Shown in pieces: positions 3,386-39,715 of a stretch of DNA of 39,715 nt (position 1 is its first letter; each line of letters starts with the position of its first letter). The stretch lies in IMG/VR virus record IMGVR_UViG_2541047728_000019; one strand, written 5' to 3'. The notes below the pieces were generated by a model. The model was not told the origin of the DNA. It worked only from the letters and a program-made list of their open reading frames with translations, and searched no databases. The position numbers were made by a program, and so were the translations under genes. The DNA comes from a virus. Lineage: Duplodnaviria; Heunggongvirae; Uroviricota; Caudoviricetes.

Positions 3386-6300
3386 TTAACGTTCTTCCAG
3401 AGACTGAATCCGCTCTTTTATCTTATCCATTTCTCTGCGCTGCCATGCTGCCTCGATATAGAATAAGAGATCAGGTCTGACCCCCCATCTAGATCCTGCT
3501 GGCGTTATTTCAACGCGCTCAATGATGTCTTCCATTACCATCACTGGATTATCATCCTCATCAACAATGATGCTCCCGTCATTATCAGTCAGCGGCATTT
3601 CCCTTTGGCCAGTAATGACGTCATCATATACTGCGGGATAATCGTCATAGCAAAGAAAGGCATAGCGGCATGTTGTGCTTTCTTCTTCCATGAGTCCGTG
3701 AGAAATAAGAACATCACGAAGTTGCTGCGCGATTACACCATGATGTATCCTCGCCCCTTCTTCCCCCTTTATAGCGACAGCGTTCAGCCATTTATAAGCG
3801 ATATACCTGACGTCACCCCAGGCATCCAGCAATGCTTCGTCAGGAGAGACCGGCTCTGTCTTTAATGTTCCGTCACTGGTAACCACAGGATTGGAGCCAA
3901 GATAAACTGTCGAGAACCTGTTTCCCGGACCACCAAGAGCATTTACATTATCAAGATAAGGTTTAACATCTCCGTTCTCAAAAAGATGTTCGAGTGCGTT
4001 ATATACCGCGCGACGTGGAGTACTGCTTCTGGAACCATGCAACGTTATCATTGCACCATCTGCTGAAGACGTTGTTTCACCGCCGCTAACGATTAATCTC
4101 TGAGCGGTAACATCATCAGACGGTACTTTCTTCGCAATAATGGCGTAATTACCCTCAAGTTTGACTTCCGCGCGAACTTGTCCTGATGTACCTGCATGGA
4201 CAGTCAGTGACTGGACGGCAACATCATCTGTGAAATCAACGGGTACAGGAACCGTCCTCACGCCTGACGTCGACATAAAAGTAGGAAGCGTTCTGTTAGG
4301 AGTGGCTCCGTAGACAAAATCCCTTGAAACAAATTCTTCCTGTTTAATTTTCACCCTGAAACAATACAAATCAGCCGGGTGACCATCGTGAACATAAGGA
4401 TATTTTCTGTTGTTATCCCCTATGCTCCATGGGTTTAGAAAGTCTTCCCCACCGAAAATGTAGTACAGCCAGTTGTCTTTGATACAAACTGAACCAACAC
4501 CAACCGCAGAGTTAACTATTCCGCCCTGATAAATCTGATCAGTAACATTAACCCACTCTACATTATCCAGACTCCACTCATTGACGTTAACTCTGGTCAT
4601 AAATGTTCTTGGATAATTTCCTGCATAACGGTTATCAGGTTCTCCTCCTTCCCACTCACCAAATGCGCGCTCACTGCCAAAAATAATCAGCTCATCGCCA
4701 ACTTTGGCAAAAGGAAGGTTTGAGTGATGAACATTATTTGGGAAGCGAAGAGAATTCCATGATGTACCTAAATCAGAGCTTCTGTGCAATGAACTACCGG
4801 GTTGAGTACTTAATGTCCCCCTGGTCGTCAGATACAGAATGCCATCATAATATTTTACACATGGCTCAGATGCATTCGCCTCATATTCTACAGGTATGCG
4901 TCTGCGAACAAAGCTACCAGGAGAACCGAAAGCATCAGAGAAATAGAGTATCCCAAGCTCGCGTGGACCAATATCACCATTATGGTAGCCAACAGCAAAA
5001 CTGTTATCGCTAATCGTCGCAAAACTGTGAATCTCAGTAACAGGAGTGCTTCCGTCAACAAAAGAAGGAATAGTTCCAAGACTGGTTTTTCTCCATGGTG
5101 ACGAGTGAAATGATGTGCCAAAACTCCAGTATCTACCCTCGTTATTCTGATCCACATCCTGGGTATTTTTCGTCGTAACTGTAAAGGTATTTTTATCAAT
5201 AACAGTAGTCACCGTCATATTCCCGGTAACACCTGTAACACCAGAGTTTGAGAAGTTGACAAAATCACCAGCAAATAATCCGTGATCAGTAATGCGAATA
5301 TAAGCGACTTGCTGATTTGCTGCTTTCGTTATACCACCATAAACGCGAAGGCTGCGACTCATTGGGCGATCCCACAACTCTGCAACCTGCAGTTTATTTC
5401 CGCTCACGGTCCGCGTCTCAATTACAGCAAAAAGGCGATTTCTGACAACCCCCATACTCATGCAGTGATAGTTAACTGTGGGATAGTTTTCATGTAAATC
5501 TGTAAGCCATTCCGGCGTTGTCCAGGTCTTCCCGTCATCTCCTGAGCGAACCCATGCAACATGGAGGTTATTTACACCATGGCGGTCTCCAGCCATAAAA
5601 GGCGCATAGATGACATTGTCATATACAAACGTTTTATCCTGCGTCCAGGCGTTGTACCACGGTGTATCTGTAATTTTAAATAACTCTCCCTGGATAAAAT
5701 CTTCAGAAGCATAAAAAAGAGGTTGGCCCGGTATTCTCTCAAATAAAAAACGAGCATTTTTAAATCGACTGACATCCGGAAGAGTTGATACTTTAAAAGT
5801 AAGCCCTAATCCGTCAATTTTATAACCTGGAGATGAGGCTTCAAGGCACGCGCTTATTGCAGTGGAATCGTCATTTATACCATCACCAACAGCTCCAAAA
5901 TCTTTGGGGCTAATAGCATCACGCATTTTATCCTGGAACGTTCGGTACACAGCCCCAGAACCATACTGAATAAACCAACCAAAACCACCAACAACCCCGG
6001 AGATTGCAGCATCGACATAATTACGCATTGAGCGATTATTTACAGCGTCCTGCTCAAATGATGGATCTGCAAGGTTAGAAATTTTGTTTTGCTTTGCATC
6101 GTAATATTTTGCAAGCAAAGATGGTTTCATCAATGCACGTCTGAACCACCCAAAACATTGCTGGATCAGCATCGTCAGATAGTCAAAGGCATCTTCATGC
6201 ACCTCGGGGAAAAATTTTCCCTGATTACGAAGATCAGTCTCCTGCACCACATCAAGCACACGATCTATCGTAATTCGCCATCCAGCAGCAAGCGGCGACG

Positions 6301-6505
6301 GAAGAACAACAGAACCGCCACTATAAGTGCCCGCCCCAGTTACCGTATAACCGGTATCCAGTACTAGTTCTGTTACGTTACCGTTAAGGTCAGACACCTG
6401 AACAACCAGGTCGGATTTTTTGAAAATACGGAAGGTATACGGAAATGATGTCGTAACGCCGTTACCAGTGTATTCGTTGTGGTCAACTTCGGTTGAGACC
6501 GTCAT
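3386..6505 (-). CDS. Tailspike: N-terminal particle-binding domain, central beta-helix-type depolymerase region, C-terminal intramolecular chaperone (peptidase S74-like) domain
   Basis: 1039 aa; DFGAVGDGINDDSTAI motif typical of pectate-lyase-like beta-helix enzymes; C-terminal DEALLDAWG...YKWLNAVAIKGEEGARIHHGVIAQQ matches self-cleaving chaperone domains; GGAGA SD. Confidence 0.85.
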   Translation of the reverse strand: MTVSTEVDHNEYTGNGVTTSFPYTFRIFKKSDLVVQVSDLNGNVTELVLDTGYTVTGAGTYSGGSVVLPSPLAAGWRITIDRVLDVVQETDLRNQGKFFPEVHEDAFDYLTMLIQQCFGWFRRALMKPSLLAKYYDAKQNKISNLADPSFEQDAVNNRSMRNYVDAAISGVVGGFGWFIQYGSGAVYRTFQDKMRDAISPKDFGAVGDGINDDSTAISACLEASSPGYKIDGLGLTFKVSTLPDVSRFKNARFLFERIPGQPLFYASEDFIQGELFKITDTPWYNAWTQDKTFVYDNVIYAPFMAGDRHGVNNLHVAWVRSGDDGKTWTTPEWLTDLHENYPTVNYHCMSMGVVRNRLFAVIETRTVSGNKLQVAELWDRPMSRSLRVYGGITKAANQQVAYIRITDHGLFAGDFVNFSNSGVTGVTGNMTVTTVIDKNTFTVTTKNTQDVDQNNEGRYWSFGTSFHSSPWRKTSLGTIPSFVDGSTPVTEIHSFATISDNSFAVGYHNGDIGPRELGILYFSDAFGSPGSFVRRRIPVEYEANASEPCVKYYDGILYLTTRGTLSTQPGSSLHRSSDLGTSWNSLRFPNNVHHSNLPFAKVGDELIIFGSERAFGEWEGGEPDNRYAGNYPRTFMTRVNVNEWSLDNVEWVNVTDQIYQGGIVNSAVGVGSVCIKDNWLYYIFGGEDFLNPWSIGDNNRKYPYVHDGHPADLYCFRVKIKQEEFVSRDFVYGATPNRTLPTFMSTSGVRTVPVPVDFTDDVAVQSLTVHAGTSGQVRAEVKLEGNYAIIAKKVPSDDVTAQRLIVSGGETTSSADGAMITLHGSRSSTPRRAVYNALEHLFENGDVKPYLDNVNALGGPGNRFSTVYLGSNPVVTSDGTLKTEPVSPDEALLDAWGDVRYIAYKWLNAVAIKGEEGARIHHGVIAQQLRDVLISHGLMEEESTTCRYAFLCYDDYPAVYDDVITGQREMPLTDNDGSIIVDEDDNPVMVMEDIIERVEITPAGSRWGVRPDLLFYIEAAWQRREMDKIKERIQSLEER

Positions 6506-7837: not shown

Positions 7838-8104
7838 ATTTACATCGCACTCCTCTTGTGCCATAGTAATCGGGCACTGGCAAAATCCAGTGCCGGGATT
7901 GGTCTCCCGGATTACTACAGAGGCACATATGCCGCATAAGCGGTTTTTTTATGTGTAAAGCGCACCTATTCTATGGTGGGCTGTGTGGGGGCACCGAAAG
8001 GTGCGCCGGGTTCCTTTGTAGCCGGTAAGACCAACTCTGCACAGTTCACCACCATCTGATTGGTCTCAGCGGTGGTGATTAACCTAACTACAAAGGTGAT
8101 CGCC

Positions 8105-10627: not shown

Positions 10628-10676
10628 GTCGTTAATTCCTATACGTAGTTTTACGATACTGAAGCCCTGACGGTCT

Positions 10677-10690
10677 GGCCACCGTGGGGC
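10677..10690. promoter_or_regulatory. GC-rich dyad GGCCACCGTGGGGC between arc-like and ant
   Basis: Near-palindrome; second copy at 10882-10896. Confidence 0.35.
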
Positions 10691-10699
10691 TTCGCTGTT

Positions 10700-12084: not shown

Positions 12085-15000
12085 TCACCGCATCACCGGA
12101 TCCACCTGGTTTATTAGTGGCGCAATCCAGAACAGGTTATTGCCGGGTATCAGGGTTCGGACATTATGCACAATACGATCACCGGCATCACCATTCAACA
12201 CTCCTGCGGTCACATCAATGATGCTATCCGCAAGACCAAATGACGGTCCGAATAGAGATCCTACGAATCCACGACTGGCATACCTAGACTGTGTGCCAGT
12301 GCCAAATAAAGCCCCCAGCCCAACAGCACCACCAGTAGCCTTTTCAGCCATATTGTTATATTCCATCAATGGCCCAAGAATACCGGATCTATCTATACCC
12401 TCAAGCACCAGCTTCTCTGGTGACCAGTCAACATTTTTCCCTTTCGATGCTTCTTTAAGCGCATAGACCAGTGAGCCAAGAGCAATCTGAAATGCAGTGC
12501 CATAATAAAATTGCGCAGTTCCTTCCTGTAACCCACCAAGTAGCGCACGGTTGTATGAAGCCGTTGTGAATGATTTAAACTGAAATATCGTTCGCCCCAT
12601 TGGAGTACTCGCCCATAAAGGTGTGTCACCAATACCGGGGGTGATGATAGTGTTATTAACGTCTTTCAGAACCGCTGACTGGAATACTCCGGCAACGTAC
12701 TGATCGTCCCATTTATCAAAGTTACCAATGTGCCATCCATCAATTACCTCACCATGTTTCTCGAACTCACTGCGAATACGCGCAGCCATATTGTCGTTGA
12801 TACCGAGTTTTGCCATGCGACGTGCAGAAAACGCACCAGACAAAATACCGTCTGACGTGAGCATTCCGTTCATGGATTTGTTTATGTCATTAAATCGATC
12901 CATGAGTGTCAGCTTGCCGAAGGCATCAGTAATTCGCTCCATTCCTGCTTCGACTGCTGTTGTCCTGGAAGAACTGTCAACAAGATCACCAATTGCACGA
13001 GAACGTGAATGTAGTACAGTTTCCAATCCAATCCCCATCTTCAACATCTCTTCTTTGCTGGCCTTAAATGCCGGTGATTGGGATATCTGAGAAGCATAGC
13101 CTTTCATGGAGTTACGGAAACCATTAACCATAACCCCTCTGGCCAGATCTGGAATAGCTGATACTGTCATTCCACCGAGTTTGGTCGTGAAGTTCACATC
13201 CCGCAGAAAAGCGCCAGCACGAACAAAAAACGAAGACGGGTCATCAGGCATACCATATGTACCAACAAGACGATCGCGTAATGCTGTTATGTCTCTGAGA
13301 TCATTTGCTCTTGATTTTGAAAGTCTGGACTGTTCTTTCCGTAATTCCTTTTCGTACTTTCGCATTAATGAATCGAGTTTACCCTGAGGAACAACTTCAC
13401 CATTGCTCTCATAACGTGCTTTCAGATTTGCCACACTTTCGTCATATTTCGCCTTTATTTTTTCAGGCACTTCCCGTAACAGACTGTCATATTCGTCCTC
13501 AATTAATTGCAGACGCTCTGTCATAGTTCGTTTGCCAAATGTTCTCGTCAACTCAATTTCTGCTGCCGCTTCACGGATATGACGTTGTAGAACGTAATTC
13601 ACATCACTTTCGAGATAATCCCTGATAAGACTATCAGGCACATTTAATGTTCTTTCTTTCGTACTACCTGCGGCTTTTACAGAAAATACGCTGACAAAAT
13701 CCTGTGGAACCTTAGCACCAGTAATTTTATTAATTACGATATCCGCTGCAATTTCAGCATCCTCAGGATCCAGTGTTTTATTGCCTCTCGACCACCAGTC
13801 AACCAAAATACGTCGAAATTTATCGCGTTCACTGATTATTTTTCCAACTTTATATATACGTGGGAAATAGCTTGCCTGGCCTAATGCTTTCAGTTCTTCA
13901 TCTGGCGGCAATAAACCAAGCTTTTGCATTTCAACCTTCACCCGATTTAATACAGTTCGCATCGCCTGCGCCGTTTCCTGAACAACAGGATTAGCATGCA
14001 CATCACCGCTTCGCATAGCATTCCCAACCTGCTGACGAAATGAATCAAAACTCATGTCACCACCATCAGCTTTATACTTTGCGTATGCCTGTTTATTTCC
14101 GACAACAACAGCAGCTTCTTCACGCTGCCATCCACGTGTACGGGTTTCTACAGCTACCGGTGTTTCAATCCCCCTTTCATTTCCTTTAAGGGTGAAATTA
14201 TTTTCGGCTAACTCCAGCGTTGTTTTTCGCACTGTCTTGGACGGAGACTCCATTAACCTTGTCAAAGGAGTAAGATAGCTCCCTGCTTTCCATGCAGCCT
14301 TTCCAACCACCCCACCGGAAACAGGGGTTAAATCATCCAGAGTCGCTGTATCAATTTTCATAGCACCAACACTACCACCATCAGAAAGCGAAGCGGCAGC
14401 CCTGTCAGTCGCTGATGTAATGCTCATATTATCAAGAGCATCAGCAACCTCACGCGTGGCTGCAGCCCGGACGGATGGCGAAAGCGCAACACCAGCACTG
14501 GCAAACACGCCGCTCATCATCGCACCCGCTGCAATGTGAGCGGCACTTTCACCCCATGAGCGTGTTATTTGCTGATTATTCAGCACAACCTCGCTTAATG
14601 CTGTACCGGCTGCACCAATCGCAATCTGTGAGCCAATACGCGCCAGTGCCCCTCCTTGAGCACCGGGGATAAACATTGACGCAACAGTAACCGGATCCAT
14701 TCCCGCAGCAATACTGGCAAGGGTTCCAACTACGCCAGCATCAGACAATAAACGTCTGTCTTCATTTTCATCATCTATCTGCTGCTTAATCCACGCCGTT
14801 TCCTCTGGCGATCGGGAATCTGCAAATTTCGCCCCCCAGTATTCATAACCGTGCAACTCATTTTTATCAGCATATGGGTTATAACCTTCGACCGGTTCAA
14901 ACTGTCTGGCTGGTCGGAAAAAACCAGCCAGAATATTGTTCTGTCGCATTGCAGCCCCCCATACGGAAGGCTCCGGTGGCAATGGCTCAGGATTAGCCCC

Positions 15001-15099
15001 TTCCGGAAGGGCAACATCAAACCCAGTTTGTTCCGGCAAAACATTACCTGACGGGATCAGTCCGTTATTAAGATCTTCAGCTTGTGCATAAACTGGCAT
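12085..15099 (-). CDS. Large internal virion / DNA-ejection protein
   Basis: 1004 aa, last of the internal-protein block; start overlaps upstream stop. Confidence 0.75.
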   Translation of the reverse strand: MPVYAQAEDLNNGLIPSGNVLPEQTGFDVALPEGANPEPLPPEPSVWGAAMRQNNILAGFFRPARQFEPVEGYNPYADKNELHGYEYWGAKFADSRSPEETAWIKQQIDDENEDRRLLSDAGVVGTLASIAAGMDPVTVASMFIPGAQGGALARIGSQIAIGAAGTALSEVVLNNQQITRSWGESAAHIAAGAMMSGVFASAGVALSPSVRAAATREVADALDNMSITSATDRAAASLSDGGSVGAMKIDTATLDDLTPVSGGVVGKAAWKAGSYLTPLTRLMESPSKTVRKTTLELAENNFTLKGNERGIETPVAVETRTRGWQREEAAVVVGNKQAYAKYKADGGDMSFDSFRQQVGNAMRSGDVHANPVVQETAQAMRTVLNRVKVEMQKLGLLPPDEELKALGQASYFPRIYKVGKIISERDKFRRILVDWWSRGNKTLDPEDAEIAADIVINKITGAKVPQDFVSVFSVKAAGSTKERTLNVPDSLIRDYLESDVNYVLQRHIREAAAEIELTRTFGKRTMTERLQLIEDEYDSLLREVPEKIKAKYDESVANLKARYESNGEVVPQGKLDSLMRKYEKELRKEQSRLSKSRANDLRDITALRDRLVGTYGMPDDPSSFFVRAGAFLRDVNFTTKLGGMTVSAIPDLARGVMVNGFRNSMKGYASQISQSPAFKASKEEMLKMGIGLETVLHSRSRAIGDLVDSSSRTTAVEAGMERITDAFGKLTLMDRFNDINKSMNGMLTSDGILSGAFSARRMAKLGINDNMAARIRSEFEKHGEVIDGWHIGNFDKWDDQYVAGVFQSAVLKDVNNTIITPGIGDTPLWASTPMGRTIFQFKSFTTASYNRALLGGLQEGTAQFYYGTAFQIALGSLVYALKEASKGKNVDWSPEKLVLEGIDRSGILGPLMEYNNMAEKATGGAVGLGALFGTGTQSRYASRGFVGSLFGPSFGLADSIIDVTAGVLNGDAGDRIVHNVRTLIPGNNLFWIAPLINQVDPVMR

Positions 15100-17816
15100 T
15101 ATTTAGATCCCCACGAAAAGTAATCTTTAAATTTGTCCATACGTTCGTTATGCAGGCGCTGATACTGCTCATCCAGAGCGCGATGCTTGTCTTTGAAGTT
15201 TCGTATAGCCTGTCCACGCATAATTTCTTCCTGCTCGTACTGCTCCCGTTCCTGCTGCATTTTCTTATAAGGTTCCCAATCTTCTAGTGATGGTTCCCAA
15301 CGCATAGGACGCCCATGTTTGTTATAAAACGGCTGGACCCGATCGATGCCATTTTCATCCTTAGTTCTTACCATAATGGCGTAATCACCATTACGAGGTG
15401 TTAACACGTCAGGGGTTATGAATAATTCTCCATTAATACGACTCTCAGGGGTTTTTGTCTCAACTACAGGAGCATTACCTGACGTGATCCCAAGCAACGT
15501 CGGACTGGTTGTTATAATCTCTTTGCGCTCACCGTACATCAGCCGTTCTTTTTCAGCTTTCCACTGCGCCGCCTGCCAGCCTGACGGCCCATATTGATAA
15601 AGCGCCTCCGGTGCATATTTCATAAACTGCGCTTCTCCGTTAACCTCGCTGATACTCCAGGTGCGGGCTATCTGCTGGTTGGTCATTTGCTTCGCTACGT
15701 CAGCGTTACCACCAGCAACGCGGTAGTTAATGTCATACAGCGTCTGATAGTCATTACGGAATCTAGCTGCTTCCGGCGTCTGGTCATCCGCAGACGGATC
15801 CCAACGGAACCACTGCGCCATATTGCTGACAGCAGAATTCATCGCCTTGCTGCGATTATTTTTGTACTCTTTTGAACTCTGCGTTGATGCCAATTGAGCT
15901 TTAAGAGCATCGGTCTGGTTGTACGTCAGGTTCTGCGCCTGCTCGATAGCCGCATCAGCAGACATGCCAGAATCTGTTAGTTGCTTAACAGTCAGATAAA
16001 AACCCTGCATATCCTTCGGCATATTTCCAATAGATGCATTGTCTGTTTCATATAACCGACTAAACAAATTCGCTGCATTTTTAACCACTTCCTGATTGCT
16101 GGATCTGGATACTGCTGAAAGCTGCGTGATGACCTGCGAAGGCATGATGCCAGTCTGAGCCACAAGCCGAACAACCCCATCATGAGTGGAGGCATCATTA
16201 ATACGAAAGTTCTGCGCCATTTCTGTGTAATCAGCAGCTTTCTGCATTGATTTGTTGCTTGGGTCTAATTTTTCACCTATTGTCAGCGCCTCATTGAATC
16301 TGCGTGAATCACGTTGCGCCTGAATTGCTTCATTTGATCGCTGAAGCAATGCAGACAATTTTCCGTAAGCATCGAGTTTTAACGCATAGTGAGGATCGTT
16401 AACCTCAGGCTTCACTTTCTGCATTTCTTCTTGCTGCTGAGAAGGAGGTAAATACTGAATTGCCTGGAATATTCTCGCGTTATCAATCGCTATATCCAGT
16501 TGATTGATTATTTTATCTGCATTTTTTCCATACCCCCTGATGATAGTCTCCTGAGCCGGTATATAATCTGGAACCTCACCGTTATATAGCTGGGCCATGG
16601 TGTTATTAATAGCTGGCTCAAGCTGTTCTAATATTAACTTCCTTTGCTTTTCTATCTGACTATTAGCAAGGTTATCTATTTGATAAATAGTCAGCGGATC
16701 CATTCCAGTTTTATTTTTTCTATATCGGGAAAGCCACCCTTGTGTTTCTGATGGAAGATTTCGGATAAATTCTTCTTCTGATATTTCACCTTTACGTGGA
16801 TCACCGACTTTGGCGATCAGTTTATCCACGTTACCCATCCCCCAGTTATATGCTGCTCCGGTCAATATTTCGGAGCCGTACTTACCATACAGTTGATTTA
16901 CATAGTCACTGGCGAGCATTTCATGCTGTTGTTCGTCCGTAGGGTTGTATTTAACGCCACGCTTGGCCGCCAGTTCTTTCCCTGTGCCCGGCATTAACTG
17001 GTATTTCCCCTGGGCTCTCTCTCCAGAAGATGTTATCGGTCCTTCAAGAAGACTACCATCAGGATTAAAATGTCGATCACCTGATTCAACAAGGCGTATG
17101 GCACGCATGTCCATGCCTCCAGAATCATTTTTCTGAAACAGACCATTTAGCCATCCTTCTGGATTGGCAGCGGCATAATTCTTCGCCCGCATTTCTGTGG
17201 CACGGCGATCATCACTTTCTATTTCTTCCAGAATGCGTTCTTGTGACCATCCCCTGGCAGCTCCATATCTAGCAATGGCTACCATTCTGGAATTTCTGGC
17301 TAAAGTGGCAGTTTGCGGGTCATTCCAGGCATCCGCTTCATTTTGTATCCATAATTTTCTCGTTGCCTGATATTGCTCATCTTCATAGGCATTTGTCTGC
17401 CCTATCTCATGTCTGAGAACTCCAGTACTGAACTGAATTTTCTGTGTTCTGGCTTGTTGCAAAAACATATTTCTTGCTGCTTCATCAGTCAATGAAGCAG
17501 CTATTTCTTCCACATCCTGATCAAATCCAGATATGTACTCTTGCCCCTTACCAATCGCATTTTTGCCTTGTTGTGCATAAAAACCGGTTTGAGGGTTATA
17601 AAGACGTTCATTGCTGCGCTGATTAAGCTGAAGGATGGCATCCTGAGACAATGCAACATTCGCTTTCTGCCTGGCTTCACCATATGCCACCGCATACTGA
17701 TCTGCGACATTCGCCAGCACCTGACCTGCTTGAGGAACATCGAAGATCTGAAAACCACCGGTTTGCACACCACGACTTTGCACCTGGCGTCCGGATGTAG
17801 TAGGAACAACAGGCAT
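15099..17816 (-). CDS. Internal virion protein with soluble lytic transglycosylase domain
   Basis: 905 aa; SLT-like segment with ES..GDRHF...GKYQLMPGT and AAYNWGMGNV. Confidence 0.85.
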   Translation of the reverse strand: MPVVPTTSGRQVQSRGVQTGGFQIFDVPQAGQVLANVADQYAVAYGEARQKANVALSQDAILQLNQRSNERLYNPQTGFYAQQGKNAIGKGQEYISGFDQDVEEIAASLTDEAARNMFLQQARTQKIQFSTGVLRHEIGQTNAYEDEQYQATRKLWIQNEADAWNDPQTATLARNSRMVAIARYGAARGWSQERILEEIESDDRRATEMRAKNYAAANPEGWLNGLFQKNDSGGMDMRAIRLVESGDRHFNPDGSLLEGPITSSGERAQGKYQLMPGTGKELAAKRGVKYNPTDEQQHEMLASDYVNQLYGKYGSEILTGAAYNWGMGNVDKLIAKVGDPRKGEISEEEFIRNLPSETQGWLSRYRKNKTGMDPLTIYQIDNLANSQIEKQRKLILEQLEPAINNTMAQLYNGEVPDYIPAQETIIRGYGKNADKIINQLDIAIDNARIFQAIQYLPPSQQQEEMQKVKPEVNDPHYALKLDAYGKLSALLQRSNEAIQAQRDSRRFNEALTIGEKLDPSNKSMQKAADYTEMAQNFRINDASTHDGVVRLVAQTGIMPSQVITQLSAVSRSSNQEVVKNAANLFSRLYETDNASIGNMPKDMQGFYLTVKQLTDSGMSADAAIEQAQNLTYNQTDALKAQLASTQSSKEYKNNRSKAMNSAVSNMAQWFRWDPSADDQTPEAARFRNDYQTLYDINYRVAGGNADVAKQMTNQQIARTWSISEVNGEAQFMKYAPEALYQYGPSGWQAAQWKAEKERLMYGERKEIITTSPTLLGITSGNAPVVETKTPESRINGELFITPDVLTPRNGDYAIMVRTKDENGIDRVQPFYNKHGRPMRWEPSLEDWEPYKKMQQEREQYEQEEIMRGQAIRNFKDKHRALDEQYQRLHNERMDKFKDYFSWGSK

Positions 17817-24525: not shown

Positions 24526-24818
24526 TCCTGTTCACTGGCCTCTTTGGCCATCTTCAAATACTGTTCAGGGCAATGCGCCATAACGCGCTGAAACAGTTCC
24601 AGCGCCAGATTGCGTTGCCCCTCATTAAATGCCATTGCCATAGCATCCATCGGAGAGATAGCGGAAAACACCCGGCCTTTCTCCAGCACCGACCAGACAA
24701 CGCGACGCCCCTGTTCACTGCTCATGACAAAGCGAATGTCATCAATTTCACGCTGCGCCATGTCACGTTGCTTACGGGCGTTTTCTTCTTTCAGTTGATC
24801 GTCTTCGTAATCTGTCAT
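24522..24818 (-). CDS. Hypothetical head-assembly protein
   Basis: 98 aa between portal and scaffold, overlapping both. Confidence 0.5.
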   Translation of the reverse strand: MTDYEDDQLKEENARKQRDMAQREIDDIRFVMSSEQGRRVVWSVLEKGRVFSAISPMDAMAMAFNEGQRNLALELFQRVMAHCPEQYLKMAKEASEQE

Positions 24819-26494
24819 TGTGATTGCCCACCCTGACCACTAACTGCATTCGCCATAGCTGACAAAACACTCGGATCCGAAGTTTTAGCTTCACTTAGCG
24901 TCTTGGCACCCTGTGCCGCCGCCATCCCCATCGCCATCATTTGTTGCTGCTGTTGTTGCTGTGCCCGTTGCTGGCGAGCCTGCTCAACCTGTTCCTGCGG
25001 AACAATGACGGTTGGAGACACTCCGGACATATCAGCGAATGCATCGATCGCCTGATCAACGTTGAGTTTGTCGAGAGCTTCTGGTTTCGCTTGCGCAAGT
25101 TGACCAATGAAGTTAACCGTGGACGCCAGACTGGACAGGCCGATAGACTTCTGCGCCTGAGCCATGACGGAAATGTATTCGACCTTCAGGGGCATGCCTT
25201 CCATCGCGTCAGGCGGTGGCGGCAGCATGTTTTTACGCACCATCATCGAGAAAGAGCGATCAATGAGAGGATTAAGACATTCGTCGTTCAGGCGCTCCAG
25301 AACCGGCCCCAACATCAGAAGTTTTTCTTCTTTCATTTCGATCACCGCTTCCACAGGCATCGAGCGGGTATTGATGTTCTGCAACATCATGAACAGATCG
25401 ACAAAGTAGGCGCTGTTAATGATTTGACGAGTGTCCTGAATGTCTGCCACCAAATCTGCTGTACTGGGGTTAACCAGATAAGCAGGCCTGAAACCATCCT
25501 GACCAGTAATCTGATCGATATACGTGATGTCGCCAGGAAGAAGGGAGGCGCGCTGATTCTTGAGGGAAGTCGGAGCAACCATCGGCGGATTGGTGGCTTT
25601 ATCAATCAACTGCGACTTGCGCTTCTGGAGAAGCTGCAATGCCTTAACAGGTCCAAGCGCCAGCATACCCGGGCATGATGATCCATAAACATCTTCGCCG
25701 TTAACTTCCCAGCGCGGAGCCATAATTGGAAACTCATCGAATCCGGACTCACGCAACAACTTGTCGTTATCGCCACCAACCTCGTAATAAACCGATTTGA
25801 ATGGCTTGTTCTTGCTATCCAGCTTCGATGTATCGCGGTCAATGTTCGGGTAAACCGAATGCATCACTTCAATCCACTTCTCGTAGGTGCCGCTTTCCCA
25901 CATGCTTTTTACGGATTCGCTGACGTTATTTAGCCCGAACTCCTGAACAAGCTGACGAACAGTCATAGAGAACTTGCGAAAACAGGTGTCCACACTGCCA
26001 CGAGGTGAGTTAGCCAGGTAGTAACTGCCTATCGGGAATGGCATTGTGCGAATGATGTCCTCGTCATCCTCCAGCACTGCCATTGCACCAGTGCTGTATG
26101 TGCCGAGGCTTCCGTATAACTGCGGCAGCGACTGATAGAGATTCGACTTATTGAACATATCGTTCATGCGGTTCTGCACCGCCTCAAGCCACAACTTAAC
26201 AGGGCCATAATCCATCATTTCAGGATCTGGCGTAGCCAGGCGAAACCACGGACGCGCGGGGCTTGTGATGCCTGACATCATGCCGCTGGCGAGAGTGCGC
26301 GCCGCCATAGTCCCGGTCGAATCAATAATGCGTGTATTGCGTCGATCGTTACGGTTGACCTCAGAAGTCAGAAAGCGGGAACCACGCGGGTTGATGTAAT
26401 CACTCAACTCGCGCCAGTGCGGCTCGAACGACTGACGCTCGCTTTCAAGTTGTGCGAACTGTTTGTTCAATCGCTCTTTAGTTGTTTCCGCCAT
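24815..26494 (-). CDS. Portal protein, podovirus head-to-tail connector type
   Basis: 559 aa; N-terminal MAETTKERLNKQFAQLESERQSFEPHWRELSDY typical of T7-type connectors; Gln-rich C-terminus; GGAG SD. Confidence 0.9.
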   Translation of the reverse strand: MAETTKERLNKQFAQLESERQSFEPHWRELSDYINPRGSRFLTSEVNRNDRRNTRIIDSTGTMAARTLASGMMSGITSPARPWFRLATPDPEMMDYGPVKLWLEAVQNRMNDMFNKSNLYQSLPQLYGSLGTYSTGAMAVLEDDEDIIRTMPFPIGSYYLANSPRGSVDTCFRKFSMTVRQLVQEFGLNNVSESVKSMWESGTYEKWIEVMHSVYPNIDRDTSKLDSKNKPFKSVYYEVGGDNDKLLRESGFDEFPIMAPRWEVNGEDVYGSSCPGMLALGPVKALQLLQKRKSQLIDKATNPPMVAPTSLKNQRASLLPGDITYIDQITGQDGFRPAYLVNPSTADLVADIQDTRQIINSAYFVDLFMMLQNINTRSMPVEAVIEMKEEKLLMLGPVLERLNDECLNPLIDRSFSMMVRKNMLPPPPDAMEGMPLKVEYISVMAQAQKSIGLSSLASTVNFIGQLAQAKPEALDKLNVDQAIDAFADMSGVSPTVIVPQEQVEQARQQRAQQQQQQQMMAMGMAAAQGAKTLSEAKTSDPSVLSAMANAVSGQGGQSQ

Positions 26495-26508: not shown

Positions 26509-26715
26509 TTACTGACCAAGCAGCGTTTTACCGCTGGTATTAGCAGTTGATGTGTCGCCCTGAGAACCGGTAAGCAGCGTAGAACTACGACCAGCAGCAG
26601 CGCGACGGCGACGAGTTTCTTCGTCGCGGGCATCAACAACGGCGGCATCCTGCTCCTGTGGTGCTGCCTGAACTTCTGGTGTTGCAGGCACTGATGGTGA
26701 GCTACCCATGCACAT
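26509..26715 (-). CDS. Small acidic hypothetical protein upstream of portal
   Basis: 68 aa; ATG preceded by GGAG SD; chosen over the overlapping alternative-frame ORF. Confidence 0.4.
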   Translation of the reverse strand: MCMGSSPSVPATPEVQAAPQEQDAAVVDARDEETRRRRAAAGRSSTLLTGSQGDTSTANTSGKTLLGQ

Positions 26716-26753
26716 ATCAATGACTCCGTACGCAATTAAATTATTACCAATTT

Positions 26754-26764
26754 AACCACATATG
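26754..26764 (-). promoter_or_regulatory. Recurrent motif CATATGTGGTT (minus strand) upstream of the portal-proximal unit
   Basis: Lies between palindrome 26806-26820 and the start at 26715. Confidence 0.3.
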
Positions 26765-26805
26765 ATTTATTTATCGTAGACAGTTGACATTTAACGCGCG
26801 AATTA

Positions 26806-26820
26806 TTACCTTTCAGGTAA
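26806..26820. promoter_or_regulatory. Operator-like palindrome TTACC-TTTCA-GGTAA
   Basis: Perfect dyad; TTGACA hexamer at 26784-26789. Confidence 0.55.
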
Positions 26821-27142
26821 CCAAAGAGTTCATTCCGGTTACTAACCTGACTGGCTTGTCGTTAAATTGAACAGGTGGAGTGAGCTTTTATTTTGAGCAG
26901 TACGGCGTATGGCACATGCGCCGATAGCGGTCTGGATGCGTTTAAGGGGCACCCTCCCTGGCTGTGGCAAACGAACCAGGTAGCCGGAATGTGCAAGTCG
27001 AGCGGTTTTATTCCGCGCACGGGGATTCACCATCCCGGCGATTCGGTGTGACGCCTCGGAAGAGACGAGGGTACAACGATGAGAGCATTTATGGAGCCGC
27101 GACAAAGTGTGGCGCCTTAACAGGCTAAGTGCTCTCAGCGTT

Positions 27143-27219
27143 GTGGCATTAGCTCAGTTGGACAGAGCAACCGCCTTCTAAGCGGTTGGTCGCAGGTTCG
27201 AATCCTGCATGCCACGCCA
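27143..27219 (+). tRNA. tRNA-Arg (anticodon UCU, reads AGA)
   Basis: Cloverleaf folded by hand: acceptor GTGGCAT/ATGCCAC, D-arm GCTC..GAGC, anticodon stem ACCGC/GCGGT with loop CTTCTAA, T-arm GCAGG-TTCGAATC-CCTGC, 3' CCA encoded. Confidence 0.85.
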
Positions 27220-27262
27220 GAATCACGCCTAAGGACCGTGATGCCAGAAGTTCCAGGTGCTT

Positions 27263-27305
27263 GGCGGTGATGGTTTCCCTTGAAGGACTATCACCGCCCT
27301 TTTTA
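27263..27305 (+). terminator. Rho-independent terminator downstream of the tRNA
   Basis: ggcggtgat...atcaccgcc stem then CTTTTT. Confidence 0.6.
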
Positions 27306-27382
27306 CAGCAGGACGCCATTGCGATGACTTCATGCTGTAAACCAGTACAGCCACGGAAGGCATAACTCATTGCTTCCAGTTC

Positions 27383-27405
27383 GCCCGGTTCGCCGGGCAT
27401 TTTTT
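27383..27405 (+). terminator. Second hairpin plus T-run just upstream of the Gp49-like gene
   Basis: gcccgg-ttcg-ccgggc then 7 T, followed by RBS. Confidence 0.5.
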
Positions 27406-27417
27406 TAAGGTGAGATT

Positions 27418-27792
27418 ATGAACGACCAGCAAATCGAAAAAGAAATCGTTGAGAAAGGTAAAACGGCACCTCGTGTAACTCCTGAGAAAATTGAAGGTCT
27501 CATTTGCAGTGAGCATTTTTTTACTGCTGCGCAGGGGGATCATCAGGCTAAAGAAGATGACCTTATTTATAATCCAGAGCCTTATGTCGAAGCCACCCCT
27601 GATGCTCTGCACCTTCTCACTTTCTGCGTCCTGGTGCTGCGCAACGGCTTCACCGTCACCGGAGAGAGCGCCTGTGCAAGCCCGGAAAACTTTGATGCAG
27701 AAATTGGTCGGAAGATTGCCCGACAGAATGCTGTAAACAAAATCTGGATGCTTGAAGGTTACTTGCTGAAGCAGAAGTTAAGCGAGCAATAA
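27418..27792 (+). CDS. Conserved phage protein (Gp49/Sf6 gene 66-like family, tentative)
   Basis: 124 aa; LTFCVLVLRNGFTVTGESACASPENFDAEIGRKIA segment; assignment from memory. Confidence 0.6.
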   Translation: MNDQQIEKEIVEKGKTAPRVTPEKIEGLICSEHFFTAAQGDHQAKEDDLIYNPEPYVEATPDALHLLTFCVLVLRNGFTVTGESACASPENFDAEIGRKIARQNAVNKIWMLEGYLLKQKLSEQ

Positions 27793-27812
27793 CACCGTGA
27801 CATATCACAAAC

Positions 27813-27840
27813 AGCCAGCCTATGAGCTGGCTTTGTTTTA
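27813..27840 (+). terminator. Rho-independent terminator after the Gp49-like gene
   Basis: agccagc-ctatga-gctggct then TTTGTTTT. Confidence 0.6.
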
Positions 27841-27882
27841 TCCTCATCAGAGGATATCAACAACATTATCCCCTCAAGCGGA

Positions 27883-29358
27883 TTAAGCATAGGGATCGTA
27901 ATCTGTGATGGCTTTGCCTTGCTGGTTCTGCTGCCCGGGAATTCGCAGACGCTTCGACACAGGGAACGCAAACGTCAGCAGTAGCGCATCGCCTTTACCA
28001 GGAGAACGCCCAAGTCGCTCTTTGATATCTTCCTTCGGTTCGATAACGATTTTACCGTCCACGCGAACTTTGTACTCTGCCGTCGACAGGTCGTCCGCTG
28101 TTTCCTGGTCATCCAGCATGCCGCCGAGCCTCAGCCATGTCTTGCATGAGTTGAACATCTCCCCACGCTTGTTGAGCATCTGCGGGTCAGTAGACGCGCC
28201 ACCGAACGGAACAAGTTGCCATGTACGACCCCAGCCGTCACCGATTGACTTCAAACCGGTTCCGTAACCGAAGTCGATGAACACCGCGTCAGCCTGATAC
28301 TGGTCTTCAAAGTCAGCGATACGCTTCGCCATAATCAGATCGTCGGTAGTCTTGTTGCCAGTCCACAGCACCTTACTGTGTAGCCCCTGCCGCAGGTATA
28401 TCACCGCGTCATCAACGCCGGAGTATGCCGGGTCAACGCCGATTATCACCGGAGCATGTGCCACCTGCGCAGCGGTTACCACCCGTTTCATTGCCTCGTC
28501 AGTAAGACCGGTAGGGATAAACTGCAATTCAGATGCATCAGGGAATATGCCGCGCACACGGATTTTAACGAAGTCGCTGTCTTCCCCGTAGTCATCAACC
28601 CATTTCTGCAACTGCTGTTTGTTAGTGCCTTCCACCGTTCGGCTGTCAATCTGCGCAGTTTTCCAGCGGTGTTTATATTTGCGGAAACATTCGCGGAAAC
28701 GTCCGGTATTACGCGTCGGGTTTCCGAACGCCACCCAGATAATCTCAGTGTCTTCGTCCGTTAGTGCACCCTCGGCAACTTCCCACACCAGATCCGCAAT
28801 GTTCGACGCTTCATCGAATACCACGATGATGCGTTTGCGCTCGTTGTGTAGTCCGGCGAATGCCTCAGTGTTGTGCTCAGACCAGGGGATTGCGTCAGCT
28901 CGCCACCGCTTGTCGTGTCCAGGATCATTGCTGTACATCGCGGTAGCGGTACAGGTAAACCAGTCTTTCGTGATAGCAAGGTTCGACCACTTGATAATTT
29001 CCGGCCAGGTCTTCGTTCGTAGCTGGTTGTCGGTGTTGGCGGTCACCACAACCTTACAATCCTCGCAAGTGGACATGCCCCAGTTGATCAGCATTGAGAT
29101 GAATGCGGATTTACCAATACCGTGACCAGAAGCGCGTGCCAGCATAAGCGGCTGATAACGCGTCTCTGGATTCTGCAGGTGATCACGTATCTCTCGGAAC
29201 GCATCGGCCTGCCACTGACGTGGACCGGTAGCATGTGCCAGTTCAGTCCCCTCTTCCCCCCAAGGGAACGCATAGAGGGCATAGCCAAGCGGATCGTGAG
29301 TGAACCCTGCAATATCTTCGATTAACTGCTCTTCAGGAGATAACGCTGCATCTGTCAC
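27883..29358 (-). CDS. Terminase large subunit
   Basis: 491 aa; ATPase N-half and nuclease-like C-half; GTG start overlapping terS stop. Confidence 0.9.
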   Translation of the reverse strand: MTDAALSPEEQLIEDIAGFTHDPLGYALYAFPWGEEGTELAHATGPRQWQADAFREIRDHLQNPETRYQPLMLARASGHGIGKSAFISMLINWGMSTCEDCKVVVTANTDNQLRTKTWPEIIKWSNLAITKDWFTCTATAMYSNDPGHDKRWRADAIPWSEHNTEAFAGLHNERKRIIVVFDEASNIADLVWEVAEGALTDEDTEIIWVAFGNPTRNTGRFRECFRKYKHRWKTAQIDSRTVEGTNKQQLQKWVDDYGEDSDFVKIRVRGIFPDASELQFIPTGLTDEAMKRVVTAAQVAHAPVIIGVDPAYSGVDDAVIYLRQGLHSKVLWTGNKTTDDLIMAKRIADFEDQYQADAVFIDFGYGTGLKSIGDGWGRTWQLVPFGGASTDPQMLNKRGEMFNSCKTWLRLGGMLDDQETADDLSTAEYKVRVDGKIVIEPKEDIKERLGRSPGKGDALLLTFAFPVSKRLRIPGQQNQQGKAITDYDPYA

Positions 29359-29960
29359 TGATTGCCATCCTGACGTTCTTTCAGTCTCTTCCTGGCTGCC
29401 GCTATGCGATCAGCAATTGTCACATTCACATTAACATCCAGGCGTTCTTTGAATGCATTGACATCGACGTGCTTACCAATCAGTTCGAGGTTCTTCACCT
29501 TGTCAGGCCATTTAATTTTTTTGAGGATTGTCTCTATCGAATCCTCGTCCATGTTCATGATGGTCGATGACAGATCAAAGCCGCTAAGCGTAGTGCGCCA
29601 GATTTTCGGCCACTCGCGGATTGGCTTAAGGCTCCCATCGTCGTTGAGGATATCAATCACGTCCATCTGGTCGATCTCCACCAGGCGCATGAGAACGTAA
29701 TCAGCACTGACGCGCATTCGTTTGTTGCGCTCCTCCATCAACTCGGCAATCCGTTTCTGAATGCGTTCATCGCGCATCATGACACTGGCTTTAACTGCCG
29801 CTGTATTTGGGGAGAATCCTGCATTAATCGCAGCCTGAGTCTGATTTTCAGGCGTTTTGATGTATGACTGGCAATAAGCCTCCTGCATTGCTGTTAGTGG
29901 CTTAAATTGCGTTGATTTGCGTTTATAGGTTTTAGGTTCAGCAGGCATCATAACCACCAT
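29355..29960 (-). CDS. Terminase small subunit (putative)
   Basis: Directly upstream of terL with overlapping stop/start; start uncertain (ATG 29960/29951/29948 or TTG 30029). Confidence 0.7.
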   Translation of the reverse strand: MVVMMPAEPKTYKRKSTQFKPLTAMQEAYCQSYIKTPENQTQAAINAGFSPNTAAVKASVMMRDERIQKRIAELMEERNKRMRVSADYVLMRLVEIDQMDVIDILNDDGSLKPIREWPKIWRTTLSGFDLSSTIMNMDEDSIETILKKIKWPDKVKNLELIGKHVDVNAFKERLDVNVNVTIADRIAAARKRLKERQDGNQ

Positions 29961-30025
29961 GGTAATAGTTACCGTTGTGGTAATAGTACCATGCAAAATA
30001 AAGCCGCCATAGTTGGCGGCAGTAT

Positions 30026-30259
30026 TCAAAGTCCATCAAATTCATCGTAAAAACTCTCGTCAAGATACCCTTCCCATTTACCGCGAATGAAAATTACATC
30101 CTCGCCGCAAGGGTGCTGACTGTCGATAACTATATCCCTCCTGGCGCAACCATACTTATGCATGAGAAATTTAACCTCTTTCGGAAAATTTGCTGAGTTA
30201 TCTCTCATATCTTCAAGGTCGTAGCGTATTTTTGGCATAACACCTTCGTGACATGTCAC
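30026..30259 (-). CDS. Hypothetical protein
   Basis: 77 aa in nin-like block. Confidence 0.5.
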   Translation of the reverse strand: MTCHEGVMPKIRYDLEDMRDNSANFPKEVKFLMHKYGCARRDIVIDSQHPCGEDVIFIRGKWEGYLDESFYDEFDGL

Positions 30260-39524: not shown

Positions 39525-39715
39525 ACAGGGCATCACCTGCAGATTTAAGGAAATGCCTTGAAACTGCAAACATGCTTGCACATAGTGGGATCAGGTTTGT
39601 TCCAATTCCCGCTGTCACTGATGCTGAATTTGCAACGCTGTCAGCAATATTCGCAGACAAAATTGAATCACTGGCAGCAGAAGCAGAGATGGAAGAAAAT
39701 CAGCAGAATAATTAA
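39521..39715 (+). CDS. Hypothetical small protein
   Basis: 64 aa, start overlaps methyltransferase stop; stop at window end. Confidence 0.45.
   Translation: MNRASPADLRKCLETANMLAHSGIRFVPIPAVTDAEFATLSAIFADKIESLAAEAEMEENQQNN

Follow-up and report, generated by a model that had tools for sequence, protein, structure and literature searches.

A structured leader RNA of early phage operons that carries a tRNA as cargo and may be a new antiterminator

In a prophage of Escherichia coli a transfer RNA (tRNA) gene for arginine and a Gp49-like gene lie on the plus strand between terL and portal, both of which are read from the minus strand, and the question raised by this locus is what such a unit is doing there and what is held in the GC-rich stretch that precedes the tRNA. 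The prophage is the IMG/VR record IMGVR_UViG_2541047728_000019, the whole of which, at 39,715 nucleotides (nt), is called the window here. The original prediction described the 260 base pairs (bp) upstream of the tRNA as rich in dyads and as a possible leader or small RNA. A structured RNA is indeed present but it is not a mere tRNA leader; it is an independent mobile element, which at 82 of the 127 loci examined has no tRNA beside it. The element is a structured RNA of an early phage operon leader, and there is a real chance that it represents a new class of antiterminator RNA. It is this leader RNA that is new, while the tRNA and the Gp49-family gene, both annotated already in RefSeq, are known and ordinary and add nothing new. 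The parts of the unit, their conservation and the RNA structure are facts of the sequences compared, and the statements on function are drawn from sequence and context.

A conserved and folded RNA core

The conserved part of the element is a core of about 170 nt, whose features are all on the plus strand, the helices being those of the core structure.

26903..27072, plus: conserved structured RNA core of about 170 nt (38-sequence alignment, covariation, covariance model)
26903-26923, plus: helix P1
26931-26935 with 26976-26980, plus: helix P2, around a variable hairpin
26979-26997, plus: invariant segment GGUAGCCGGAAUGUGCAAG (19 nt), from the core alignment
27002-27016, plus: helix P3
27022-27036, plus: helix P4
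27028-27031 with 27045-27048, plus: pseudoknot, CACC in the P4 loop with a downstream GGUG
27054-27070, plus: helix P5, a 5-bp hairpin with the 7-nt loop GAAGAGA

The region 26810-27142 folds better than its shuffles with a z-score of -2.4 on either strand, which is weak alone; the real support for a structured RNA is comparative. A scan of viral contigs for an invariant 18-mer returned at least 120 loci; among the loci listed there were 107 distinct cores, from which 38 representatives that are no more than 90% identical were taken. Because this set was collected by an exact 18-mer, it overstates the conservation of that segment and cannot be used to test it. The 19-nt segment is also identical in the first five divergent copies compared, which were found by BLAST and not by the 18-mer.

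Across the 38-sequence alignment 94.8% of the cells of P1, P2, P4, the pseudoknot and P5 are paired, compared with at most 52% when the partners are slid. Of the 28 pairs, 13 change on both sides, and the observed covariation score was reached by none of 500 shuffles. The pseudoknot itself covaries, with CACC/GGUG becoming AACC/GGUU in three sequences, and the hairpin of helix P1 contains a two-sided change that is AU in 20 sequences and GC in the other 18. Conserved G-U pairs identify the plus strand as the RNA strand. The covariance model finds a single copy in the window, at 26885-27083, with 154 bits.

A long-range helix (GUAGCC/GGCGAU) is compatible with the alignment but has no two-sided change. 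RNAalifold offers an alternative arrangement, in which GGUAGCCGGAAUGUGCAAG, the 3' half of helix P1 and the junction that follows form an interrupted helix of 18 bp. This is 99.4% paired over the 38 sequences, compared with at most 36% when slid, although it is nearly invariant and covariation is consequently uninformative. Nearest-neighbour energies favour the hairpin fold over the alternative by about 4 kcal/mol on average. That the core has two alternative folds is possible but unproven.

When the leader was scanned against Rfam 15, at gathering thresholds and also with E-values up to 10 and permissive filters, no family matched the core: there was no plus-strand match over 26885-27083 or over the copies at two further loci (L006 and L003). 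Open-access text, searched for the invariant sequence and for the topic, does not describe the element; published work on Pas small RNAs, on mEpimmI phages and on 50 bacterial genomes proved to have no bearing on it. As far as present tools can tell, the core RNA is undescribed.

The early transcription unit and its exchangeable parts

The core is one part of a unit on the plus strand (26784-27832) with the order promoter/operator, structured RNA, tRNA-Arg(UCU), terminators T1 and T2, and Gp49-family gene. The parts outside the core are as follows.

26784..26812, plus: predicted sigma-70-like promoter, with -35 TTGACA at 26784-26789, a 17-nt spacer and -10 TACCTT at 26807-26812 (sequence reading and scan)
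26806..26820, no strand: predicted phage repressor operator, the inverted repeat TTACCTTTCAGGTAA, overlapping the -10 element
27074-27087 with 27130-27143, plus: closing helix P6, CAACGAUGAGAGCA with UGCUCUCAGCGUUG, around a variable insert (sequence-class comparison)
27143..27219, plus: tRNA-Arg(UCU) with encoded CCA, in the cargo slot of the module (ARAGORN, Rfam)
27223..27241, plus: small conserved hairpin UCACG-CCUAAGGAC-CGUGA, between cargo and T1
27263..27305, plus: terminator T1, GGCGGUGAUGG...CUAUCACCGCC and then CUUUUUA, with its hairpin at 27263-27298 (terminator scan, covariation, Qin alignment)
27306..27382, plus: conserved non-coding spacer between T1 and T2, with the hairpin GGAAGGCA...UGCUUCC, near-identical in epsilon15, Tyrion and the window
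27383..27406, plus: terminator T2, GCCCGGUUCGCCGGGC and then AUUUUUUU, with its hairpin at 27383-27398, ending 11 nt upstream of the start codon
27418..27792, plus: Gp49-family gene, PF13876 Phage_gp49_66, with the ribosome-binding site AAGGTGA (Pfam, RefSeq)
27813..27832, no strand: bidirectional terminator-like hairpin between the Gp49 gene and terL (scan; a putative rho-independent terminator in the phiV10 annotation)

The window represents an E. coli prophage of the Uetakevirus kind, akin to phiV10 and epsilon15, and over 26700-27900 it has 99.4% identity to the chromosome of an avian pathogenic E. coli strain and 97-98% to phiV10 and related phages. The unit lies between terL and gp3/portal, and its placement on the opposite strand is borne out by these minus-strand genes. 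It had been taken for a 1.4-kb insertion, but it is not a recent one, as it is found in the identical place in phiV10, the O157 typing phages 9 and 10, TL-2011b, Enterobacter phage Tyrion and the Salmonella SPN1S-type phages. Part of it is also present at the equal site in epsilon15 (L127, 1186-1314), where a deletion from P2 to the 5' half of T1 has taken the tRNA and most of the structured element and has left T2 and the Gp49-like gene. The description of the unit as bracketed by terminators holds for its 3' side, which has terminator-like hairpins, whereas the 5' side consists of a promoter and operator with no convincing terminator.

The promoter at 26784-26812 is conserved in epsilon15 and Tyrion by alignment; a promoter consensus tool preferred an overlapping alternative at 26777-26806. 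The counterpart of the TTACCTTTCAGGTAA site is annotated in the epsilon15 record as 'repressor; lysogeny'. There are 15 copies of its operator-like palindrome (TTACC-N5-GGTAA) in the window compared with an expected 0.65, and this number, together with the overlap of operator and promoter, indicates that the unit is one of many repressor-controlled phage promoters. The palindromes (6610, 7730, 7823, 8869, 26806, 29969, 32807, 32869, 34771, 35108, 35156, 35868, 35930 and others) are spread genome-wide like the C1 operators of phage P1, and one of them is within the 5' end of terS. The best explanation of 26784-27832 would be a single repressor-controlled early transcription unit that is conserved in this phage group.

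The core is separated from its cargo by helix P6, the last pair of which uses G1 of the tRNA. In 14 sequence classes P6 always forms 14-17 bp with differing sequences, and its arms pair with an average of -19.5 kcal/mol with their own partners compared with -14.1 kcal/mol when swapped, while the length of the insert varies from 48 to about 300 nt. What follows P6 invariably has GUGG at its start and is variable from there on. This slot holds the tRNA-Arg in the window and a degenerate tRNA in L073; in L100 a tRNA-like sequence is found within the P6 insert, and other cargos are closed in an acceptor-stem-like manner by GUGGUG...CACCAC-AACC. The tRNA thus appears as variable cargo behind an independent mobile element.

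As tRNAs most of these cargos fail, since ARAGORN supports only that of L073, and this at an 80% threshold as a tRNA-Gly(tcc)-like sequence. TΨC-arm motifs (GGTTCGATTCC) occur in the P6 insert or cargo of L100, L096 and L073, where ARAGORN makes no call at its default setting. The cargo of L069 (4600-4646), and also that of L096, contains a 47-nt mimic of a 16S ribosomal RNA (rRNA) helix, for which the small-subunit (SSU) rRNA search of Rfam on L069 gives 33.4 bits (E 1.3e-7), and which might bind a ribosomal protein. Near the 3' ends of cargos at many loci there is a hairpin GCCGGAGAUCAGCNCCGG (L003 2845-2862, L069 4661-4678), which is RydB-like with weak Rfam scores of 13.7-17.7 bits. P6 of L032, L033, L061, L071 and L094 contains a second conserved insert, AUCAGCCAUUCACG..UAAGCAUC...GGUGCUUAGCGGGACUGGAAGAGUUACCACUUGGAGACGGUCC, which may be another structured RNA module. 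A small open reading frame (ORF) after P6 (VVNAQAD...) was discarded, as neither its length nor its sequence past the first seven residues is conserved.

Behind the cargo the sequence ...AAUCACGCCUNAGGACCGUGAU follows differing cargos in Tyrion, L040, L081 and L097. T1 has the general form GGCGGU...ACCGCC and then CUUUUUAC, and T1, often with T2, lies behind the element in about half of the representatives and covaries. Element and T1 are about 125 to 450 nt apart, and the cargo that fills this interval is unrelated from locus to locus. This arrangement extends to the dicB leader of the K-12 Qin prophage, which is homologous to the P6 3' strand and cargo of the Stx2c-phage module, and the small RNA DicF falls at the position of T1 when K-12 Qin is aligned with the Stx2c phage and the window. 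Both are untranslated leaders of a repressor-controlled early operon beside a repressor gene, that of Qin being the source of DicF. In contrast, the core is absent from Qin, and T1 of the window is below the DicF score and without DicF-like complementarity to ftsZ. Thus T1 gives 13 bits in the window (E 1.9) and 19.4 bits in L069 with the DicF model (RF00039), for which the gathering score is 48, and in a crude duplex test against ftsZ it has z = -0.55 in the window and -0.07 to +0.82 for four other T1s, compared with -2.24 for DicF; on neither count is T1 supported as a DicF. Upstream of dicF, Qin (L160 5050-5440) contains the strings GGUGGAGUGCG and GUCGUUAAAU, which recur directly upstream of the element in the window (26852-26885). 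On these comparisons the DicF leader has the appearance of what is left of such a modular array.

With sensitive BLAST the stretch at about 26902-27145 is found at 70-81% identity in unrelated phages, which include the lambdoid phages cdtI, mEp460 and the Stx2c and Stx2a phages, P1, P7 and other P1-like phages, and phages of Klebsiella, Enterobacter and Salmonella. Complete copies are also present in a lytic Klebsiella Lastavirus and in a phage recorded on Stenotrophomonas. Klebsiella phage SopranoGao has a full copy of 121 bits (L158 2421-2609) downstream of its lysis genes and close to the end of the genome, which shows that lytic phages can carry the element as well as temperate ones. Among 5426 complete E. 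coli genomes 1822 have the core, 546 of its places being on plasmids, and it is unannotated in all but one of the 25 genome records displayed. Matches to the 18-mer in Bacteroides, Dysgonamonadaceae, Oscillospiraceae and Azonexus (L133, L143, L137, L153) have a weak or no covariance-model match and are probably due to chance, more than 10 such matches being expected by a rough estimate in the 596 gigabases of genome contigs scanned.

Among the 127 loci, tRNA-Arg(UCU) is directly downstream of the element in 28, and 17 are P1-like with tRNA-Ile2 (CAU) directly upstream and ban downstream; in phage P1 the element is part of the ban operon, which C1 controls. At 59 loci the strand of the element also carries a repressor gene of the S24-peptidase kind (cI/LexA type), which ends about 175-235 nt upstream of it. 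The Stx2c phage has, in this order, cI, a terminator, a TTGACA-16-CATAAT promoter, the element, its cargo, T1 and the first early-left gene, and in about half of the representatives a sigma-70-like promoter is found 36-175 nt upstream of helix P1. The first downstream genes vary (Gp49-family, YfdP/YfdQ-like (DUF2303), excisionase-like, Ban helicase and others), and no neighbouring protein family common to all contexts was found. The cores of phage P1, L066, L010 and loci like them lack P6, cargo and terminator and lead directly into an ORF. Over the stretches examined, the covariance model finds a single copy at each of 99 loci out of 100; the sole exception, L023, has two copies (3987-4171 and 4794-4975) about 620 nt apart on the same strand. 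No second copy was found in a right early operon in the window, in mEp460 (22000-44510) or in the 99 loci.

Proposed antitermination and its rivals

The favoured reading, to which we give a probability of roughly 40%, is that the element acts as a cis-acting processive antitermination RNA that requires host factors only, being put-like in action but unrelated to put. That protein-independent processive antiterminator RNAs would thereby gain a second class, with a structure unrelated to that of put, is advanced more as a tentative proposal than as an expectation. The element would act in cis while emerging from the host RNA polymerase and would render elongation termination-resistant, such that transcription could pass T1, T2 and long untranslated stretches to reach the downstream genes. 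RNase P would then free the element at the 5' end of the tRNA, which would be compatible with a put-like action, since put stays active when untethered from the transcript (PMC9378689) and tRNA cleavage would not abolish such a function. Moreover, helix P6 would double as the platform for exchangeable cargo, including tRNAs, tRNA-like RNAs and rRNA-like mimics.

Several aspects of the contexts point in this direction. The element appears always to be close to the 5' end of what are predicted to be repressor-controlled early transcripts, and its core has a complex fold with invariant unpaired bases. As there is no conserved protein neighbour, any partner must be host-derived. No promoter-like site was found between T1 and the first early-left gene in the lambdoid phages and L006, or between T1 and the Gp49 gene in the window, the spacer 27306-27382 included. 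In mEp460 no N gene is annotated and an early-left operon of about 5 kb lies behind the element, so that transcription must pass T1 without N. With a tRNA and two terminators in between, translational control cannot act, and copies that run directly into ban or other ORFs are at odds with a small RNA of a wholly discrete kind. It would seem that all contexts are accommodated only by an action in cis on transcription elongation.

There are also considerations that weigh against antitermination. In phage P1 and about a third of the representatives there is no intrinsic terminator within 800 nt, and epsilon15 is without most of the element yet has kept T2 before its Gp49-like gene. There is one copy per phage and not a left and right pair, no similarity of the element to put was found, and the function has been deduced from sequence and context. 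The promoter-RNA-terminator layout fits a discrete non-coding RNA gene equally well, and unchecked readthrough in the window would enter terL in the antisense direction.

The closest functional comparison is with putL and putR of phage HK022. Antitermination by put is factor-independent and depends on the beta' zinc-binding domain. The put RNA acts in cis on far-downstream terminators and needs no phage protein (PMC9378689), and the element is likewise placed directly downstream of the early promoter in N-less lambdoid phages. However, put is about 70 nt with two stem-loops and is present as a left and right pair, whereas the element has a pseudoknotted core of about 170 nt together with P6, is single-copy and is 2-3 times larger. 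Homology was rejected, as the covariance model reaches at best 2.9 bits in the PL-nun region of HK022 and the put sequence has no evident resemblance.

The nut sites of lambda are also promoter-proximal RNAs in early operons. The P5 loop GAAGAGA recalls the GAAGA loop of boxB, and the P6 3' strand is in some variants (UGCUCUUU) similar to the boxA consensus. Unlike nut, the element has a loop of 7 nt in place of a GNRA-like one of 5 nt, and its range takes in P1-like, epsilon15-like and Lastavirus phages. In a nut site boxA is single-stranded, whereas the boxA-like string lies within a helix and varies together with its pairing partner, and with the 7-nt loop and the lack of an annotated N in mEp460 a lambda-type nut site was rejected.

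GOLLD and ROOL are likewise elaborate phage or prophage non-coding RNAs of unexplained function; they are much larger and often adjoin tRNA genes. Their structures are reportedly given in PMC12286853. They are found in other bacterial groups and are present in Rfam, whereas the element matches no Rfam family. In C4 of P1/P7, CI of P4 and MALAT1-mascRNA the end of the RNA is set by RNase P at a tRNA-like structure, and P6 similarly adjoins either the first position of the tRNA or cargo that resembles one. The element is unrelated to these RNAs in sequence, and its cleavage by RNase P is a prediction. The window has a C4 RNA of its own elsewhere (7969-8056). Rfam finds isrK (74.7 bits), C4 antisense RNA (78.6 bits) and sar RNA (44.8 bits) in the window at 7874-8056 and 10629-10696, which suggests an RNA-controlled antirepressor region of P1/P7 and P22 style in this prophage.

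The main rival, which deserves to be kept in view even if it is doubtful, is that the element is a discrete RNA, non-coding and stable, with an action in trans such as the binding of a host protein or RNA. Such an RNA would be cut by RNase P from a precursor containing the element, a tRNA or tRNA-like RNA and a small RNA at the DicF position, with P6 as its protective 3' end. This would account for P6 ending exactly at tRNA position 1, for the GUGG start of the slot behind it, with degenerate tRNAs (L073, L100) or acceptor-stem-like closed RNAs, for the upstream promoter and T1, which delimit an RNA of about 490 nt, and for the homologous Qin leader, which yields DicF at the T1 position. The identity of the 19-nt segment in the five BLAST-derived copies also suits it, with the limit noted for the 18-mer set. 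On the other hand, the cores of phage P1, L066 and L010 that run into an ORF without P6, cargo or terminator would there be part of a messenger RNA, no target or partner is suggested, and most cargos are not called as tRNAs by ARAGORN even at relaxed thresholds. A less demanding proposal, of a passive 5' leader that serves folding, processing or stability against 5'-end-dependent decay, or guides the maturation of the tRNA or small RNA, draws on the 5'-proximal position, the strong structure and the RNase III site that the epsilon15 record predicts directly upstream of the element. It seems improbable, as a pseudoknot, an invariant 19-nt segment and 170 nt kept across unrelated phages would be needless in a stabiliser, simple 5' hairpins being sufficient for transcript protection.

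The aptamer-like architecture, the invariant junction bases and the alternative 18-bp helix, with its high degree of pairing and two folds that differ by about 4 kcal/mol on average, could also be those of a conformational sensor, riboswitch-like or responsive to temperature or a factor, that gates the early operon. The variable distance to T1, with unrelated cargo in the interval, speaks against an expression platform of the classical kind that overlaps the aptamer; the alternative helix hardly varies, so that covariation is no guide to it, and the neighbouring genes suggest no ligand. A sensor seems distinctly unlikely. Finally, minus-strand ORFs of at least 50 amino acids overlap the element in 92 loci, and some are annotated in GenBank, such as mEp460_037. 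A small protein on one strand is nevertheless hardly credible: all six frames contain stops in the phage P1 and L009 copies, on which ground a coding potential was rejected, the length differences of the variable hairpins are not multiples of three, and the substitutions keep base pairs, with G-U wobbles that are valid on the plus strand only.

The tRNA, neighbouring genes and the meaning of the element

The prediction of a full tRNA-Arg(UCU) with an encoded CCA proved correct. ARAGORN calls a single tRNA in the whole window, a tRNA-Arg with the anticodon TCT at tRNA position 35 (27143-27219, plus), the Rfam tRNA model RF00005 gives 73.3 bits against a gathering score of 29, and the 3' end reads ...ATGCCAC-G-CCA. 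It is 85.9% identical to the nearest host tRNA-Arg over positions 7-77. The ORFs of the window use AGA at 7.4 and AGG at 5.5 per 1000 codons, compared with 1.3 and 0.9 in host core genes (a sample of 11,589 codons from the closest genome), and AGA is thus enriched about 6-fold in the phage. This agrees with the AGA codons predicted for phage genes, but AGA is not limited to AT-rich accessory genes: it is concentrated above all in two stretches of large late ORFs (3386-6505 and 12085-17816), also in several small accessory genes, and is absent from portal, terL and the ORFs between portal and 22334. Because of this enrichment the tRNA would most plausibly supplement AGA decoding, a conventional role, and it is presumed from its sequence to be charged with arginine and used in translation.

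The Gp49-like gene was also correctly named. The ORF at 27418-27792 matches PF13876 (N4 Gp49 / Sf6 gene 66) with 118.5 bits, against a cut-off of 27, and E 1.8e-34, and its name in RefSeq is 'Gp49 family protein'. The genes that flank the unit are as follows.

24815-26494, minus: portal (PF12236)
26509-26715, minus: gp3-like small ORF (ORF list)
27883-29358, minus: terL-like ORF, the terminase large subunit in the phiV10 annotation, without a Pfam match
29355-30029, minus: terS (PF03592)

Terminator-like hairpins number 6 compared with 2.0 expected. The stretch of about 100 nt at 27306-27406, nearly identical in epsilon15, Tyrion and the window, has the layout of an Hfq-type small RNA with a hairpin, an AU-rich stretch and a U7 terminator, and in Rfam it has weak look-alikes only (RyhB model, 18 bits). 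Near the end of terS there is a mini-hairpin, CAGGAAGAGACUG (29382-29394, minus), with a P5-like loop GGAAGAGAC, which scores 5.5 bits with the model (E 0.63) and may be due to chance.

How N-less lambdoid phages pass their early terminators is a question raised in the literature, where a put-like RNA has been proposed without a candidate (PMC12315714). The element is a concrete candidate at exactly that place, and the question thereby becomes directly testable. If it is a new class of antiterminator, it would be one that is carried by about a third of E. coli genomes, and it would account for the passage of early transcription through terminators and long untranslated RNA arrays in N-less lambdoid phages, P1-like phage-plasmids and epsilon15-like phages. 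Whatever its function, the untranslated stretches at the head of early phage operons, that of DicF in K-12 among them, are built of exchangeable RNA modules, of which a phage tRNA can be one.

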